DNA from: a virus
Reading direction: 5' to 3' (one strand)
Length of the DNA: 64,000 bases
IMG/VR virus record: IMGVR_UViG_3300009425_004205
Location: 1 to 64,000 of that record
Both the position numbers and the translations under genes were made by a program. Positions 25,607 to 38,369 of the stretch are shown here, piece by piece. The notes beneath the pieces were generated by a model that worked only from the letters and a program-made list of their open reading frames with translations, was not told the DNA's origin and made no database searches. Every line of letters starts with the position of its first letter. Position 1 is the stretch's first letter.

Positions 25607-26863
25607 ATGCAAGAGAAAAAAAAGATAATAACAATATCGGATAGCCCATATTCTCCATCTGGAGTTGGCATGCAGACTAGATACATGATAGAAGCTTTAC
25701 TGGCTACAGGTAAATACACTATTGTGTCTCTTGCCGGCGCTATAAGACACAACGACTACTCCCCTATCAAAAGCCCAGAACACGGCGCGGACTGGGTGAC
25801 ATACCCAGTTGACAACTACGGATCTGAAGAATTAATACGATCGTTAATGATAAACGAGAAGCCAGACGTCGTCTGGATAATGACAGATCCTAGATTTTGG
25901 ACTTGGCTGTGGGCAATGGAGAACGAAATAAGAGAGAAGTGTCCGTTGGTTTATTATCATGTCTGGGATAACTACCCATATCCAAAGTATAACAAGACAT
26001 ACTATGATTCTAACGATTTAGTTGTGACAATAAGTAAAGTTACTGACGATATCGTCCGGACAGTTTCTCCTGACGTGGAGTGCAAACACTTGCCACACGC
26101 TGTACCGTCTAATATTTTTTATAGCAGGGAATTGGTAGACACCGGTGTCATAAACCTCAAGGAGAATACAATTAAGGATAGATTTGTTTTCTTTTGGAAC
26201 AACAGAAATGCTAGAAGAAAGCAAAGTGGATCTTTAATATTCTGGTTTAAAGATTTTTTAGATATTGTTGGACATGACAAGGCAGTGCTAATTATGCATA
26301 CCGAACCGAAAGATCCTAATGGGCAAGATTTGGAAGCCATACTATCCGAGCTTGAACTTACAAATGGAGAAGTGATGATATCTACTGTTAAGACTTCCAC
26401 AGACAGGCTAGCAGACTTGTATAACATGGCAGACTGCACTATTAACATTTCAGACGCCGAAGGTTTCGGCTTGGCTACTCTCGAATCTCTCTCCTGCGGC
26501 ACTCCAATCATCGTCAATATGACAGGCGGCTTGCAAGAGCAAGTCACTGACGGCGTTAATTGGTTCGGAATAGGGCTAGAACCCGCCTCTAAGGCTATTA
26601 TCGGCTCACAGAGTGTACCGTACATATATGAGGATAGAGTCGCTAAGAAGGACGTTCTAGGGGCTATGCTGAAGATATATAACATGAGCGAGTCTGAGCG
26701 AAAAGAGATGGGAGAGAAAGGCAGGGCACATGTTATTAAGAATTATGGGTTTGACACTTATGCTAAGACGTGGAACAATATCTTATCTGAAGTTATGGAG
26801 AAACATGGATCCTGGGATAGCAGAAAGAATTATAAGGGATGGGAGTTAAGAGAGGTATCATGA
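25607..26863 (+). CDS. Glycosyltransferase (GT-B, GT4-like)
   Basis: NRNARRK, YNMAD..INISDAEGFGLATLESLSCGTPII. Confidence 0.9.
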   Translation: MQEKKKIITISDSPYSPSGVGMQTRYMIEALLATGKYTIVSLAGAIRHNDYSPIKSPEHGADWVTYPVDNYGSEELIRSLMINEKPDVVWIMTDPRFWTWLWAMENEIREKCPLVYYHVWDNYPYPKYNKTYYDSNDLVVTISKVTDDIVRTVSPDVECKHLPHAVPSNIFYSRELVDTGVINLKENTIKDRFVFFWNNRNARRKQSGSLIFWFKDFLDIVGHDKAVLIMHTEPKDPNGQDLEAILSELELTNGEVMISTVKTSTDRLADLYNMADCTINISDAEGFGLATLESLSCGTPIIVNMTGGLQEQVTDGVNWFGIGLEPASKAIIGSQSVPYIYEDRVAKKDVLGAMLKIYNMSESERKEMGEKGRAHVIKNYGFDTYAKTWNNILSEVMEKHGSWDSRKNYKGWELREVS

Positions 26864-28971
26864 AAAAAGTATTAATAGAAGCGCCAATATTAACACAATC
26901 TGGCTACGGAGAACATTCAAGGTTTGTATATAGATCCTTGCGCGAAAGAGACGACGTTGATATTCATATACTTCCTTTGGATTGGGGATCTACTAGCTGG
27001 TGCACAGAGATAACTGCCGAAACGAAAGAGATAGAGGAGCTTATTAAGAAAACTGCTGTGCATACTGCAAATAATGAAAATCCTCAATTTGATGTGCACA
27101 TCCATGTTGGCATACCAAACGAGTTTGAAAGGAAGGCGCCATATGCAGTTCATGTTACTGCGGGAATAGAGACTACGAAGATTTCGAAAGAATGGCTAGC
27201 AAAGACATTTGAGATGGATAAAATAATCGTACCATCTGAACATGCTAAGTGGGCTTTCGAGAACACTTCCCACAAGGCTGAAAAAGAAGGAAAGACAATA
27301 GAAGCAAAGTGTCAAACACCGGTAGAGGTAGTCCCATACCCAGTGCGCGATTACTCCAAGGATAATGACTTTAATTTAGACTTGAAACATGATTTCAATT
27401 TTCTTTCTGTTGCGATGTGGTGCGAGCGGAAGAACATGGATAACATGATAAACTGGTTTGTGGAGGAGTTTAAGGATGAAGAAGTGGGGTTAGTACTTAA
27501 GACAGCTTTTTCTAGGGGATCCCTCATAGATAGAAATATGATGCATCGCAAGCTCAAAGCGGTTCTTGAGAAACATGGAGACAGAAAGTGCAAGGTGTAT
27601 CTGTTACACGGCAATTTGAGCAATGAGGAAATGAAGTCTCTATACACTCATAAGAAGATAAAAGCCATGGTGTCTGCAGCACATGGGGAAGGTTTTGGGC
27701 TTCCTTTGTTCGAGGCTGCATGTAACGGCATGCCAATAATCGCGCCGGCGTGGAGCGGTTATCTAGATTTTCTGCGAGCTTCGGTATTGGAAGGAAAGAA
27801 AGGGAAGAAAACAAAAAGGATGAGAGACTTCTTTGCGAAGGTTGAATATTCTATTCAACCAGTACAAAAATCAGCAGTATGGAATAACATTATAATTCCA
27901 GAATCAATGTGGTGTTTCCCGCGTGAGCCTAGCTTTAAAAATCAATTAAGGAATGTATATAATAATTATTCAACGTATAAAACCATGGCTCAAAAAAATA
28001 AGAGAAGAGTATTGCAAGAGTTCGCGAAAGAGACAGTAATGGAGAAGTTGTCTTTAGCGTTGGTGGCTCCTACTGTGATGCCTGAGGCTGAAGTAGTCTT
28101 TGTTAGTGATTATTTTCAGCATCAACTAACTGGTGGTGCTGAGATGTCCTTGCAGGCATTGATAAACGCATCCCCAACTTCGAAAGTCATAGGGATAAAC
28201 TCCTCTTCTTTGGGAAAAAAGCAGATAGAGTTCTACAAGGACAAGCGCTGGGTGTTCGGAAACATCGCAAACTTGAAAGAAGGTGTAATGTCCTTAATGG
28301 AGGAGAATAAGATTAAATATACTTTTGTAGAGTTCGATTATAAGTTTTGTAAGTATCGGAACCCAGCATTATATGAAATGATGGAAGCAGAAGAGTGCAA
28401 ATATTCAGAAACAATTCTGGCACAGAAGTTGCAAAATTTTATAAATGGAGCGGAATCTGTGTTCTTTATGTCTGACAACCAAAGAAGGATTTACGAGAAT
28501 TCTTTAGAAAACGTAGATTTTAAAAAGTCTCATGTGTTATCTTCCTTATTCGACGCAGAGTTTTTTCAAAGAGTGGAGTCGTTAAATAAGAAGTATGAAG
28601 GCAAGAAGAATGGAAAGTGGATAGTGCTTGGATCAGAGAGCTGGGTTAAGGGCGCTGCCGAGTCAGAGGCGTGGTGTAAAGAACACAACAAATCATACGA
28701 GGTGGTGAACGGGCTCGATCCGCTAGACTTTTTAGAAAAGTTGGCAGAATCAGAAGGTGTTTGTTTCAAGCCAGTAGGCTTAGATACCTGTCCTAGATTT
28801 ATCATCGAAGCAAAGCTTCTAGGATGTAAACTTGAATTGAACGAGAATGTACAACACCGCGACGAGGGTTGGTTCAATACATCTGCGGAGGAGATGAAAG
28901 AATATTTGCAATCGCGATCGTCTTTTTTCTGGGAGAAAGCATTTCCAAAATGGAACAACATTTCACTATAA
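26860..28971 (+). CDS. Two-domain glycosyltransferase (GT4-like plus a second GT-B-like domain)
   Basis: SGYGEHSR, HGEGFGLPLFEAACNGMPII; second domain GGAEMS...DTCPRFIIEAKLLGC. Confidence 0.88.
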   Translation: MKKVLIEAPILTQSGYGEHSRFVYRSLRERDDVDIHILPLDWGSTSWCTEITAETKEIEELIKKTAVHTANNENPQFDVHIHVGIPNEFERKAPYAVHVTAGIETTKISKEWLAKTFEMDKIIVPSEHAKWAFENTSHKAEKEGKTIEAKCQTPVEVVPYPVRDYSKDNDFNLDLKHDFNFLSVAMWCERKNMDNMINWFVEEFKDEEVGLVLKTAFSRGSLIDRNMMHRKLKAVLEKHGDRKCKVYLLHGNLSNEEMKSLYTHKKIKAMVSAAHGEGFGLPLFEAACNGMPIIAPAWSGYLDFLRASVLEGKKGKKTKRMRDFFAKVEYSIQPVQKSAVWNNIIIPESMWCFPREPSFKNQLRNVYNNYSTYKTMAQKNKRRVLQEFAKETVMEKLSLALVAPTVMPEAEVVFVSDYFQHQLTGGAEMSLQALINASPTSKVIGINSSSLGKKQIEFYKDKRWVFGNIANLKEGVMSLMEENKIKYTFVEFDYKFCKYRNPALYEMMEAEECKYSETILAQKLQNFINGAESVFFMSDNQRRIYENSLENVDFKKSHVLSSLFDAEFFQRVESLNKKYEGKKNGKWIVLGSESWVKGAAESEAWCKEHNKSYEVVNGLDPLDFLEKLAESEGVCFKPVGLDTCPRFIIEAKLLGCKLELNENVQHRDEGWFNTSAEEMKEYLQSRSSFFWEKAFPKWNNISL

Positions 28972-37497: not shown

Positions 37498-38369
37498 GAG
37501 TACTAGTTACAGGACACAAGGGCTACATAGGTAGTCATCTATTCGAGAGGCTTAAGCTGGAGGGTTATGACGTTGCTGGTATCGATTTAACTGGGTGTAT
37601 TCTCGACGGGAAAGAACTACCAGGTGAAAATATATGTGATGGATATCCAGTAGAGTATTATCAATTCATGCCAGAGTTCATATTTCATTTAGCAGCCATC
37701 CCCCGCGTTGGATATAGCGTAGCTAATCCTGTGGAGGTAATGGAAAACAATATTATGTGTACAGCGAAGACTTTAAGATTCGCTAAGGTTGCCAAGTCAT
37801 CATTAATATATTCGAGTTCATCTTCTGTGGAAGGTAACGGCGCCGGCCCCACAAATCCCTACGCGTTGTCTAAGTACGTAGGAGAGTTAGAGTCTGTCAT
37901 GTATAACGATTTATATGATGTGCCGACTGTAAGTCTGAGATATTTCAATGTCTACTCTCACGATCAGAAAGCAGAAGGAACATATGCTACTGCTGTCTCA
38001 AATTGGATGGAATACATTAGGCAGAATAGGCCGCCGTTTATAACTGGAAGTGGAAACCAAAGAAGGGATATGGCACATGTCGATGACGTAGTAGACGCGA
38101 ATATGCATAGTATGAAGAACATGCCTCACTTGAGGGGTAGAGTGTTCGACGTCGGTACAGGAGATAATATATCTTTAAACGAAATGAGGGACATAGTTCT
38201 CGAGGTTTTTCCTGGCTTGCGGTTCGAATATAAGTCCGGCCGCCCTGGAGAAGTAACAGAAACAAAAGCAAATATTAAAAATTTTAAAAAAGCCGGCTGG
38301 AGTGGTAAAATACCTATCAAGGCCGGAATAAAAGAGTGCTTTGAAAGACTAAAAGGAGAAATACAATGA
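37494..38369 (+). CDS. NAD-dependent epimerase/dehydratase (extended SDR)
   Basis: VTGHKGYIGS, FHLAA, SSSSV, YALSK, LRYFNVY, RDMAHVDD; GTG start overlapping the upstream stop. Confidence 0.92.
   Translation: MRVLVTGHKGYIGSHLFERLKLEGYDVAGIDLTGCILDGKELPGENICDGYPVEYYQFMPEFIFHLAAIPRVGYSVANPVEVMENNIMCTAKTLRFAKVAKSSLIYSSSSSVEGNGAGPTNPYALSKYVGELESVMYNDLYDVPTVSLRYFNVYSHDQKAEGTYATAVSNWMEYIRQNRPPFITGSGNQRRDMAHVDDVVDANMHSMKNMPHLRGRVFDVGTGDNISLNEMRDIVLEVFPGLRFEYKSGRPGEVTETKANIKNFKKAGWSGKIPIKAGIKECFERLKGEIQ

Follow-up and report, generated by a model that had tools for sequence, protein, structure and literature searches.

Does a tailed phage carry its own pathway to make a phosphonate and place it on a glycan? 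The question is raised by a 64,000-nt stretch of DNA, hereafter the window, covering positions 1 to 64,000 of IMG/VR record IMGVR_UViG_3300009425_004205, a contig of 78462 bp with a CheckV completeness of 43%. In this window, 14 overlapping open reading frames (ORFs) lie co-oriented on the plus strand, as do all features given below, and span 25559 to 38369, with an alternative in-frame ATG start at 25607. Neighbouring genes share 4-103 nt at every junction, and the last one is followed by a gap of 193 nt. The original prediction described 13 such genes forming an apparently complete phosphonate-glycan operon; their overlap and orientation stand, while the ORF list raises the count to 14. Pfam and NCBIfam profile searches of the 14 proteins returned the families that had been named, except for a sulfotransferase-like protein assigned by its fold. 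Judging from gene content, we consider it likely that this is a resident sugar-modification island of a far-T4-like myovirus lineage, making 2-aminoethylphosphonate (AEP), CMP-AEP and probably a phosphonylated glycan.

A fixed slot in a marine phage lineage

The viral context is well supported. In the window annotation, the island is flanked by genes for PhoH, for an exonuclease and for a baseplate wedge protein, and a 136-kb relative encodes a T4 gp23-type capsid protein. The upstream boundary (22020..25595; phrog_2765 373.7 bits, phrog_69 82.5 bits) comprises PhoH, two small ORFs, a metallopeptidase-like ORF and the exonuclease, in an order identical in the related loci L001 and L004 and in G004, a 189.6-kb relative with a CheckV completeness of 100%. 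The downstream boundary (38563..40168), made of an 84-aa zinc ribbon, a 106-aa membrane protein and ORFs of 267 and 96 aa (o84-o106-o267-o96), lies directly 3' of the island in all related loci, and its 267-aa marker was found in at least 592 IMG/VR contigs. Across a large far-T4-like lineage of marine phages, which looks lytic and T4-like, the island keeps to a fixed slot between phoH/exonuclease and these downstream genes. About 11 independent viral contigs of the lineage (of the at least 592) have the core PepM-PpdA-PpdB-AEPT-CTase in this slot; in L001-L004 and L088-L092 its genes remain collinear, with identities of 46-78%. Most of the lineage is without the cassette.

The chimeric host insertion that had been named as a danger, a host fragment fused to phage DNA by misassembly, has a negligible chance of being the explanation. 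No point in its favour was found, and the best cellular relatives are merely 52-56% identical. GC is even over the island and its flanks, gene overlap reaches across the island borders up to the gap after the last gene, contigs from many different samples hold the same island in the same slot, and the phage sequences form a clade of their own. The phosphonate island is a long-resident part of an uncultured marine T4-like phage genome, viral and non-chimeric.

The predicted phosphonate core

The first enzyme of the core, the 288-aa protein P0001 (30577..31443), belongs to the PEP_mutase family (PF13714, 134 bits), and its best PDB match is the PEP phosphomutase 5unc (E 7e-58). The predicted name PepM is only partly earned, because the protein fails the EDKX5NS motif and scores 219 bits on TIGR02320 against a cut-off of 319.6. 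Where PepM has EDKxxPKxNS, its loop reads E107-D-N-P-S-P-K-R-C115-S (EDNPSPKRCS), with K replaced by N and N by C. Catalytic residues of PepM have aligned counterparts in W37, S39, D51, D78, D80, E107, K113, S116, R151 and H182. Given this loop and score, we infer from context that P0001 converts PEP to phosphonopyruvate.

That context is extensive. Virtually all of the 120 homologues closest to P0001 retain the variant loop, and the variant clade spans 420 GTDB species. Members are fused to NTP_transf_3 or to a Ppd N-terminal domain, and Ppd adjoins the variant gene in 47 of 80 genomic loci. In the tree, the phage PepMs form a single clade (SH-aLRT 99) whose sister is found in Actinomycetota cassettes with the same five-gene order.

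The remaining core genes fit this pathway. The predicted phosphonopyruvate decarboxylase is split into an alpha subunit with the TPP N-terminal domain (TPP_enzyme_N; 31433..31831) and a beta subunit with the C-terminal one (TPP_enzyme_C; 31803..32297). For both, the best NCBIfam model is Ppd, TIGR03297: alpha scores 99.5 bits on it versus 64.6 on sulfopyruvate decarboxylase alpha, and beta 92.6 versus 89.9 on sulfopyruvate decarboxylase beta; their best PDB matches are the corresponding subunits of a split Ppd, 9iz3_A and 9iz3_B (E 3e-16 for beta). The divergent class-V aminotransferase of AEP transaminase type (32251..33318; TIGR03301 PhnW-AepZ, E 1e-43) keeps its catalytic Lys in SNK and best matches the Treponema denticola nucleotidyltransferase-AEPT 6pd1 and PhnW 1m32. 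Ppd and AEPT, too, score under their NCBIfam cut-offs; the best solved relatives of PepM, Ppd and AEPT (5unc, 9iz3, 6pd1, 1m32) are phosphonate enzymes. The PF01467-type cytidylyltransferase (CTP_transf_like, 75 bits; 33245..33664) has both HxGH and RTxGIST motifs. In the PDB it comes closest to human ethanolamine-phosphate cytidylyltransferase (3elb, E 1e-38), with a further match to the Fom1 CyTase domain 5x3d. Phosphoethanolamine is the phosphate analogue of AEP, and the phage protein is a putative CTP:AEP cytidylyltransferase.

Should the Cys loop instead confer another isocitrate-lyase-superfamily activity, the pathway product would not be a phosphonate and could be a sulfonate. The KRC of the loop recalls the KRCGH loop of lyases, and the missed motif and cut-off, together with the nearly equal scores of the beta subunit, point the same way. 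Against this, solved PEP mutases are far closer to P0001 than lyases (1e-25), ten PepM catalytic residues are aligned, and the fusions of the clade to nucleotidyltransferases and Ppd are typical of true Ppm. The cytidylyltransferase, moreover, requires a phosph(on)ate group to activate, and sulfopyruvate-forming genes are absent. We hold a non-mutase P0001 to be quite improbable.

Sugar genes and the tail module

Four glycosyltransferases had been predicted, and Pfam and NCBIfam agree on three GT4 and one GT2. The 434-aa GT4 (25559..26863; PF00534, 47.7 bits) has orthologues of 59-62% identity in L001, L004 and G004, where they take up the corresponding position. A 710-aa protein (26839..28971) combines an N-terminal GT4 domain (PF00534, 29.4 bits, residues 256-313) with a C-terminal domain of about 300 aa that has no Pfam match; it corresponds to two separate ORFs in L001 and L004. 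As a lead only, it neighbours clusters of viral hypothetical proteins in the Atlas, and some of these carry Glycos_transf_1. The GT2 (28869..29684; PF00535, 75.6 bits) measures 271 aa when begun at a TTG and may in fact start later, and the 299-aa GT4-type protein (29681..30580; PF00534, 28.5 bits) has a 52% identical orthologue in L001. No membrane segment was predicted in any of the 14 island proteins, the 434-aa GT4 included, and no priming transferase, flippase, polymerase or exporter is found among the 14 genes. The operon thus deserves to be called complete for homologues of head-group synthesis and transfer, but not for priming, flipping, polymerization or export.

The tail module follows the core. 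P0391 (233 aa; 33651..34352) has no Pfam or NCBIfam match, but its AF2 model (pLDDT 93.8) predicts a sulfotransferase fold: sulfotransferases alone fill the top 13 places of the VIA-align structural comparison (Z 11.8-8.9 over 183-195 residues), and its Atlas neighbours are Sulfotransfer_1/3 clusters. The sequence shows a P-loop-like STGGSGSS at the N-terminus and an RDP..S stretch. Next comes a cobalamin-dependent radical SAM methyltransferase of the Sden_1168 family (34315..35964; NF038361, 570.5 bits against a cut-off of 575), with PF02310 (B12-binding) and PF04055 (Radical_SAM) domains and CxxxCxxC at residue 289. A LicD-family phosphotransferase (35943..36644) matches PF04991 with 40.5 bits (cut-off 22.6) over the N-terminal motif only; its catalytic stretch ending in IPWDDDID (DxD) aligns with fukutin-related protein (FKRP) 6kaj. 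LicD directly follows the CTase in L001, L002 and some Actinomycetota cassettes. The module closes with an FkbM-family SAM methyltransferase (36622..37497; PF05050 63.2 bits, TIGR01444 87.5 bits) and an NAD-dependent nucleotide-sugar epimerase/dehydratase (37422..38369; PF01370, 128.8 bits).

Is this module tied to the phosphonate? G004 carries the sulfotransferase-like gene, radical SAM, LicD, FkbM and epimerase, and its CheckV-complete genome has no PEP_mutase, Ppd, AEPT or CTase gene. Conversely, L003 and L004 have the core and no recognisable LicD, and the two modules therefore assort independently. Since the module occurs in a complete relative lacking PEP_mutase, its coupling to phosphonate is uncertain, and so is the predicted LicD-type transfer of a phosphonate head group, for which a homologue does sit in the island.

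It is accordingly possible, though we would bet against it, that the AEP core is real and the tail module not phosphonate-specific, with LicD moving a host-made CDP-alcohol and the radical SAM and sulfotransferase-like pair modifying a sugar. In G004, the module stands together with genes for APS kinase, UDP-glucose dehydrogenase, two FkbM proteins and a true Sulfotransfer_1. The radical SAM gene always lies beside the sulfotransferase-like gene (window, L142, L160), and six contigs are apparently common to their matches, as inferred from equal sizes. The affinities of the radical SAM enzyme argue the other way. Sden_1168 and Fom3 of fosfomycin biosynthesis are cobalamin radical SAM methylases of phosph(on/in)ates. 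The phage enzyme is 46% identical to Sden_1168 (SD_1168; P0384) of Shewanella denitrificans OS217, whose 79% identical homologue in a Shewanella sp. lies inside a PepM-NTase/Ppd/AEPT cluster. Family members P0316 and P0348 are fused to PF01467 or PF12804 cytidylyltransferases, as expected of enzymes acting on CMP-phosphonates, which we take to recall the CMP-bound substrate of Fom3. P-methylation by the Sden_1168 family is reported only in vitro and only for a phosphinothricin precursor. PepM and radical SAM matches also share five apparently common contigs (again from equal sizes), and in a G004 infection the phosphonate might come from the host.

Proposed pathway, acceptor and known systems

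With homologues present for each step from PEP through phosphonopyruvate (PnPy), phosphonoacetaldehyde (PnAA) and AEP to CMP-AEP, and for LicD-type transfer and glycosyl transfer, a scheme can be proposed. The variant PepM would convert host PEP to phosphonopyruvate, an unfavourable reaction that the split TPP decarboxylase would pull forward to phosphonoacetaldehyde. The class-V transaminase would then yield AEP, and the ethanolamine-phosphate-type cytidylyltransferase CMP-AEP. Four soluble glycosyltransferases and the epimerase may assemble a short glycan in the cytoplasm, which would most likely receive the phosphonyl head group of CMP-AEP through LicD. Further tailoring, with methyl and perhaps sulfate, could be the task of the Sden_1168-type enzyme, FkbM and the sulfotransferase-like protein.

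As acceptor, a cytoplasmic molecule, for instance a protein of the virion, is slightly preferred here to the host envelope. Mycobacteriophage virions are glycosylated by phage-encoded glycosyltransferases (Freeman et al. 2023, PMC10527164, as cited in PMC12619734); according to that account, soluble enzymes encoded beside the structural module act in the cytoplasm with no export machinery. The glycosyltransferases of the present phage likewise lie beside structural genes and could act in this way; phosphonate is not involved in the mycobacteriophage system. The product may instead decorate envelope glycans of the infected cell through the host lipid carrier and export, leading to receptor masking, superinfection exclusion or less progeny sticking to debris. 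We regard this as a tentative alternative. Lipid-linked intermediates are commonly the substrates of peripheral GT4/GT2 enzymes without TM segments, and export genes are missing from the island; the cassette is confined to a minority of the lineage, its nearest cellular counterparts resemble cell-wall tailoring cassettes with LicD, and phosphonate genes of marine bacteria lie in surface-glycan islands as a low-frequency trait with a presumed effect on encounters with phages and grazers (10.1101/2020.11.04.368217). However, a priming phosphoglycosyltransferase, Wzx/Wzy and an ABC exporter are all absent and the lineage appears lytic.

DNA as the acceptor seems unlikely, and we give very little weight to hypermodification of phage DNA with a phosphonate-bearing glycan. 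DNA bearing multi-sugar glycans is a known product of phage glycosyltransferases (Pyle et al. 2024, as cited in PMC12619734), and among the genes of the window is one for a PurZ-like enzyme, which marks modified DNA. Yet no PF00303 gene (ThyA/dCMP-hydroxymethylase family) was found in the 43%-complete source contig or in three relatives at least 95% complete, while control genomes matched, so that the usual hydroxymethyl-pyrimidine attachment site is without evident source. Island contents in the lineage, with GDP-mannose dehydratase, DegT and GT11, rather resemble O-antigen clusters.

The closest characterised logic is that of the bacterial Pnt pathway, where CMP-AEP and LicD-like transferases provide phosphonyl tailoring, with Ppm, Ppd, AEP transaminase and PntC, in Treponema denticola, Atopobium rimae and Olsenella uli (Rice et al. 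2019, PMC6697681). The phage encodes counterparts of the same steps up to the glycan, and the T. denticola enzyme is the best solved relative of its AEPT, with LicD and glycosyltransferases alongside. It differs in its tailed-phage setting, its EDN..KRCS loop, its PF01467 (ECT/TagD/Fom1) cytidylyltransferase where characterised PntC is PF12804, its two-subunit Ppd, and its additional B12 radical SAM and sulfotransferase-like proteins. Another close counterpart is the five-gene cassette of Acidimicrobiales, Solirubrobacterales and Frankiales MAGs (Actinomycetota, L005-L023), for which we found no characterisation in the literature. It shares the variant loop, the gene order and sometimes an adjacent LicD, with identities of 48-56% for PepM, 55-65% for PpdA, 46-54% for PpdB and 40-51% for CTase, whereas its AEPT is merely 22-30% identical; it is cellular, and record titles suggest soil or freshwater. 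The Lic pathway of phosphocholine decoration (LicC cytidylyltransferase, LicD) and the eukaryotic FKRP/fukutin likewise use a nucleotide-activated head group and LicD-fold transfer. There the head group is a phosphate ester, and the phage, whose head group would be a phosphonate, lacks the LicA kinase and the LicB transporter.

Phosphonate pathways had been assumed to be usually viewed as cellular. A virus-encoded AEP pathway has one published precedent, GCF 881, an AEP core adjoining sugar genes on an NCLDV metagenome contig, read by its authors as viral phosphonoglycan synthesis (Li & Horsman 2022, PMC8942020). That case is a single contig of a eukaryotic giant virus with a canonical Ppm-Ppd fusion, and we found no paper describing a phosphonate cassette in a tailed phage. 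Among RefSeq viruses and 364 huge-phage genomes, the same survey reported no Ppm; the filter it applied demanded EDKX5NS, which the PepM-like protein of the present phage fails. The first enzyme of the phage pathway lacks the very motif by which surveys count phosphonate producers. Taken at the level of their sequences, these phage genes should give rise to AEP and to its CMP-activated form, and probably also place it on a sugar chain that the phage itself builds.

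Gene content and the PepM-like protein

The phosphonate island comprises 14 open reading frames on the + strand, from 25559 (or from an in-frame ATG at 25607) to 38369, whose junctions all overlap by 4-103 nt and whose last gene is followed by a gap of 193 nt. With Pfam and NCBIfam searches of each gene, we assigned them in order to a GT4 glycosyltransferase, a 710-aa protein combining a GT4 with a C-terminal domain without assignment (no Pfam match over its C-terminal 300 aa), a GT2, a further GT4, a PEP_mutase protein (PepM-like), a TPP_enzyme_N and a TPP_enzyme_C protein, both with phosphonopyruvate decarboxylase as best model (Ppd alpha and beta, or PpdA and PpdB), a PhnW/AepZ-type aminotransferase (AEPT), a PF01467 cytidylyltransferase (CTase), a 233-aa protein without family match, a B12-binding radical SAM enzyme (rSAM), a LicD, an FkbM and an NAD-dependent epimerase. 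These families are the ones listed in the original prediction, including the unmatched protein, whose predicted structure resembles sulfotransferases; the count of 13 genes given there falls one short. The T4 late-promoter motif TATAAATA was matched 7 times for 6.1 expected, and sigma-70 and terminator scans stayed at chance level, neither indicating the timing of expression. The search of sequencing runs returned three seawater or marine metagenome runs only, with small shares (0.07-0.12) and no RNA run among them.

The PepM-like protein (30577..31443, + strand, 288 aa) carries the loop E107-D-N-P-S-P-K-R-C-S116, which departs from the EDKX5NS motif by K to N and N to C exchanges. This loop aligns with IEDKRFPKVNSF of 5unc and LEDKLFPKTNSL of 1m1b, and solved PEP mutases read EDKxFPKxNS where the phage protein reads EDNPSPKRCS. 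TIGR02320 is still the best-scoring model (219.3 bits, below the cut-off of 319.55), ahead of phosphonopyruvate hydrolase (155.7) and methylisocitrate lyase (145.1), and PF13714 is matched with 134 bits. Lacking the motif and falling below the TIGR02320 cut-off, the protein cannot be filed as a canonical Ppm, and on these two points the original assignment as PepM has to be qualified; the fold, the ligands and the coupling to Ppd stand. The superfamily fold is present, and residues D51, D78, D80, E107, K113, S116, R151 and H182 align with D58, D85, D87, E114, K120, S123, R159 and H190 of the Mytilus enzyme, the metal and substrate ligands being conserved except for K116 and N122 (Mytilus numbering). 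Other departures from PepM are a Ser at G47 and DEGGP in place of the DTGYG turn. The best solved relatives are mutases (E 7e-58), with lyases far behind (E 1e-25).

Practically all of the 120 closest homologues share the variant loop, which argues that it is under selection. Among 50%-identity representatives, the form EDNxFPKRCS[FL]Y marks a large clade, found in 420 of 185,579 species genomes, mainly of Actinomycetota, Myxococcota, Acidobacteriota, Binatia and Planctomycetota, and in more than 100 metagenomic protein clusters. Members of this variant clade are fused to PF12804 (a MobA-like nucleotidyltransferase) or to the TPP N-terminal domain of Ppd. Ppd alpha and beta directly follow PepM in every phage locus, and Ppd adjoins the variant PepM in 47 of 80 cellular loci. 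In the survey of Rice et al., such fusions were nearly confined to true Ppm: of 905 fused proteins, 883 carried the motif and 22 lacked it (PMC6697681). From the kept loop, the clade fusions, the Ppd neighbours, the conserved ligands and the mutases as best solved relatives, we infer that the phage protein is probably phosphonopyruvate-forming, with PEP mutase activity. A carboxy-PEP mutase on the way to phosphinates, which would suit a P-methylase, was dropped because TIGR02319 scores far lower (105.9 bits) and every gene needed to make carboxy-PEP is wanting.

From phosphonopyruvate to the head group

For the split decarboxylase, TIGR03297 scores 99.5 bits with Ppd alpha against 64.6 for sulfopyruvate decarboxylase, below cut-offs, and 92.6 against 89.9 bits with Ppd beta, again below cut-offs and too close for NCBIfam to separate the two. 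Each subunit finds its best PDB match in the corresponding one (alpha or beta) of 9iz3, a 'putative phosphonopyruvate decarboxylase'. AEPT has TIGR03301 as best model (149.7 bits, below the cut-off of 360.8); its top five PDB matches are all 2-aminoethylphosphonate (AEP) transaminases, among them the Pnt-pathway enzyme of T. denticola, and the PLP lysine of SNK is preserved, as befits a class-V/AEP transaminase. The CTase matches PF01467 with 75 bits (cut-off 21) and bears the family signatures HxGH and RTxGIST as HVGH at residue 14 and RTPGIST at residue 117. Its closest solved relative is human ethanolamine-phosphate cytidylyltransferase (ECT, E 1e-38), and the Fom1 CyTase domain was also matched. 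The substrate of ECT is the phosphate analogue of AEP, and gene context together with the ECT match suggests AEP as the putative substrate of the phage CTase. LicD matches PF04991 with 40.5 bits (cut-off 22.6) over profile positions 5-32 only, and its IPWDDDID stretch aligns with the catalytic stretch of FKRP, as in the LicD family. Together, AEPT, CTase, split decarboxylase and LicD fit the published CMP-AEP/LicD scheme of the Pnt logic (PMC6697681), and CMP-AEP is a likely substrate of the phage LicD.

The 233-aa protein (33651-34352) has no sequence-family match in Pfam or NCBIfam, and its model returned nothing from the PDB at E <= 0.001 with Foldseek. Its predicted fold (pLDDT 93.8) has sulfotransferases as all of its 13 best structural matches (VIA-align, Z 11.8-8.9), with P-loop kinases below at Z 8.8 or less. 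Atlas neighbours agree with this assignment, and putative PAPS-binding motifs (5'-PSB P-loop and 3'-PB) were read by eye. An hhalign comparison detected no relation between its family and the P-loop protein encoded 5' of the Shewanella rSAM gene.

The rSAM, with PF02310 and PF04055 domains and CPVGCTFC (CxxxCxxC) at residue 289, scores 570.5 bits against NF038361, the model of the Sden_1168 P-methyltransferase (cut-off 575), over 506 of 560 profile positions, and is 46% identical to the S. denitrificans Sden_1168 protein. A single-sequence scan of genome contigs with it found no relative; five equal contig sizes are common to the PepM matches and the rSAM matches. A Shewanella sp. homologue (79% identical to Sden_1168) lies within a PepM-nucleotidyltransferase/Ppd/AEPT cluster and some members of the family are fused to cytidylyltransferases, which supports a CMP-phosphonate as substrate, in the fashion of Fom3.

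A complete relative of 189.6 kb (G004, 189594 bp, CheckV 100%) carries both genes in an island ordered phoH, exonuclease, GT4, 698-aa GT4, sulfotransferase-like protein, rSAM, LicD, FkbM, epimerase and o84 (a conserved gene after the island), with no PEP_mutase-family gene genome-wide and no Ppd, AEPT or CTase in the island. The sulfotransferase-like and rSAM genes travel as a pair, and the tail module that they form with LicD, FkbM and the epimerase is separable from the phosphonate core. The presence of this pair in a genome devoid of PepM implies that it can work without phage-made phosphonate, and for this reason the chances that the rSAM methylates a phosphonate head group in the window phage seem evenly balanced. 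Additionally, the G004 island (L142/L179) encodes APS kinase, a true Sulfotransfer_1 protein, a second FkbM, a HAD protein and a UDP-glucose dehydrogenase, and looks like a phage-encoded sulfated-glycan kit making its own PAPS.

Phage residence, the variable slot and the origin of the cassette

The phage record, an IMG/VR virus contig of 78.5 kb, is 43% complete. Immediately 5' of the island are PhoH and an exonuclease, the exonuclease overlapping the first glycosyltransferase, a baseplate wedge protein (phrog_219 and phrog_6 matches in the window) and giant structural ORFs lie on the 3' side, and GC is flat over the island borders. A 136-kb relative (G001) has a T4 gp23-type capsid (PF07068, 191.7 bits), the closest cultured capsids being those of Microcystis phage Mel-JY01, Flavobacterium phage immuto and Rhodothermus phage RM378 (37-45% identity). 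The gp23-type major capsid of the relative, the gp6-type baseplate wedge and the viral record are those of a far-T4 phage. As capsids and baseplates together are only 29-45% identical to those of the same three phages, the lineage falls on an uncultured far-T4-like branch. A portal search (PF07230) of the phage's own record gave no match and is uninformative, the controls being silent as well.

Metagenomic proteins 65-87% identical to the PepM-like protein number more than 120, several with Tara names and several on contigs of 136-185 kb, and 11 IMG/VR contigs of the same lineage encode the protein too. Wherever the flanks suffice, the order PepM-PpdA-PpdB-AEPT-CTase is constant, as is the slot, with phoH/exonuclease on one side and the four small conserved genes o84, o106, o267 and o96 on the other. 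The viral record, the phage flanks on both sides, the flat GC and a core recurring in the same order and slot in related viral contigs bear out the original prediction of an operon that is truly viral. A chimeric assembly was rejected on account of the flat GC, the same slot in related contigs and the single clade of phage PepMs; the island is old within the phage lineage.

The downstream marker o267 occurs on at least 592 IMG/VR contigs, and across the best 80 of these loci the sugar genes in the slot 5' of it vary, with GT2s, two DegT aminotransferases, an epimerase and a GDP-mannose dehydratase in L098, for instance. The slot is a hypervariable sugar island. Companions of the core in viral relatives are two LicD, methyltransferases and a further GT2-like glycosyltransferase in L001, LicD and GT11 in L002, and FkbM, DegT and GDP-mannose dehydratase in L088. 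In L004, LicD is not recognisable and a SAM methyltransferase and a PhyH-family 2OG dioxygenase (8551-9990) lie directly 5' of PepM, a pair that may yield a hydroxylated or methylated AEP variant. With the core on about 11 of at least 592 contigs, a rough estimate from two non-exhaustive searches, the phosphonate core is a minority module.

The PepM tree (maximum-likelihood, quick search, SH-aLRT support), which does not give the direction of transfer, gathers the window and seven IMG/VR loci in one clade (SH-aLRT 99), sister to a clade of Actinomycetota MAGs (99), with 84 at the joint node; both are nested in the variant clade and separate from canonical EDK..NS sequences. The sister loci match the phage core in all five genes, their order and their spacing, with LicD next in some, which points to a cassette exchanged as a unit, long ago. 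Identities between phage and Actinomycetota proteins are 48-56% for PepM, 55-65% for PpdA, 46-54% for PpdB and 40-51% for CTase, and only 22-30% for AEPT. Across the Actinomycetota MAG loci (L005-L023), the cassette PepM(EDN..KRCS)-PpdA-PpdB-AEPT-CTase is common in Acidimicrobiales, Solirubrobacterales and Frankiales, LicD being present in some. Two other IMG/VR contigs, L095 (9557-10813) and L096 (9584-10849), carry an unrelated CTase-PepM fusion of about 420 aa with an EDNxxPKxNS loop, as well as Ppd and AEPT; being unrelated and apart in the tree, this fusion indicates a second, separate viral acquisition.

Elsewhere in the window, a one-piece tmRNA (17144-17452, +, RF00023, 131 bits) has the tag peptide ANDNVENFEDFALAA, whose resemblance to alphaproteobacterial tags may hint at the host. 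The stretch 19262-19968 (+) holds a 206-aa ORF that weakly matches PP-loop (QueC-like) proteins and, 11 nt beyond it, a tRNA with anticodon CAT, and a 222-aa protein with zinc-metallopeptidase matches (23683-24351, +; ATLF 27.8 bits, M90) keeps its position in relatives. A 799-aa protein (12575-14974, +) has a short cytidyltransferase-like match to phrog_395 at residues 478-516 and may be a nucleotidyltransferase unrelated to the island. A 334-aa protein matching the PurZ-type adenylosuccinate synthetase family (9038-10042, +; phrog_1211, 243.7 bits) hints that 2-aminoadenine may stand in place of adenine in the phage DNA.

Acceptor, precedents and significance

The island holds no priming transferase, flippase, polymerase or exporter gene, membrane-like segments were found in none of its 14 proteins, and all of them look soluble, which fits a cytoplasmic acceptor such as virion proteins. 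Glycosylation of virion proteins is reported for mycobacteriophages (Freeman et al. 2023, as cited in PMC12619734). Action of the product on host lipid-linked intermediates fits as well, soluble proteins and the lack of priming, flipping and export genes being equally compatible with it. Decoration of DNA by the glycan was rejected as unlikely, since PF00303 (ThyA/dCMP-hydroxymethylase family) is absent from the window's record and from three near-complete relatives. The baseplate wedge gene sits between two giant ORFs, one of 3461 aa (44209-54594) and one of 3478 aa (59137 to beyond 64000, ending at 69573 in the full record), which presumably encode proteins of fibres or decorations and are candidate acceptors of the glycan.

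The chemistry follows the phosphonyl-tailoring pathway already known from bacteria. A giant-virus MAG provides the one published AEP pathway encoded by a virus (PMC8942020), and our literature searches found no published phosphonate pathway or phage-encoded PepM in tailed phages. Published PepM inventories required EDKX5NS (PMC8942020, PMC6697681, PMC12723261) and would thus have discarded the PepM-like protein; the same filter may explain why Li and Horsman detected Ppm neither in RefSeq viruses nor among 364 huge phages (PMC8942020). What is new is an AEP pathway resident in a large phage lineage, a motif-negative PepM clade, and the pairing of an AEP core with a Sden_1168-type rSAM and a sulfotransferase-like protein. 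The cultured Vibrio phage Va2 (L097, MW073017, 104837-110942) has an annotated PEP mutase of 435 aa with the non-canonical loop EDKNPSAKIN, only 25% identical to the PepM-like protein and separated from a TPP-binding protein by ribonucleotide reductase genes. Va2 could offer an experimental handle on phage phosphonates.

Phosphonates form a large share of the dissolved organic phosphorus of the ocean, and surveys tally their sources by looking for PepM proteins that carry EDKX5NS. This standard filter discards the variant PepM clade, with its 420 species-level genomes and more than 100 metagenomic protein clusters. We consider it unlikely that the phage lineage makes a head group of its own, possibly a new one (AEP methylated by the B12-rSAM and perhaps sulfated), for its virion proteins, with EDN..KRCS as a second mutase type. 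If this were true, C-P compounds would enter seawater directly from virus particles and lysates, a source missed by motif surveys, and mutases that form C-P bonds would include a second type, the EDN..KRCS clade, left out of all counts so far.

The AEP-to-CMP-AEP cassette is a mobile, low-frequency module in the hypervariable sugar island of a large marine phage lineage, and the orphan Sden_1168 rSAM family is now placed in a compact gene context. If the enzymes are active, the existing lists of viral and cellular phosphonate producers have gaps, and the PEP and phosphorus of infected cells would be diverted into C-P compounds. Active enzymes would also provide a hydrolysis-resistant tag on phage or host surface glycans, which could shape adsorption, defence and grazing.
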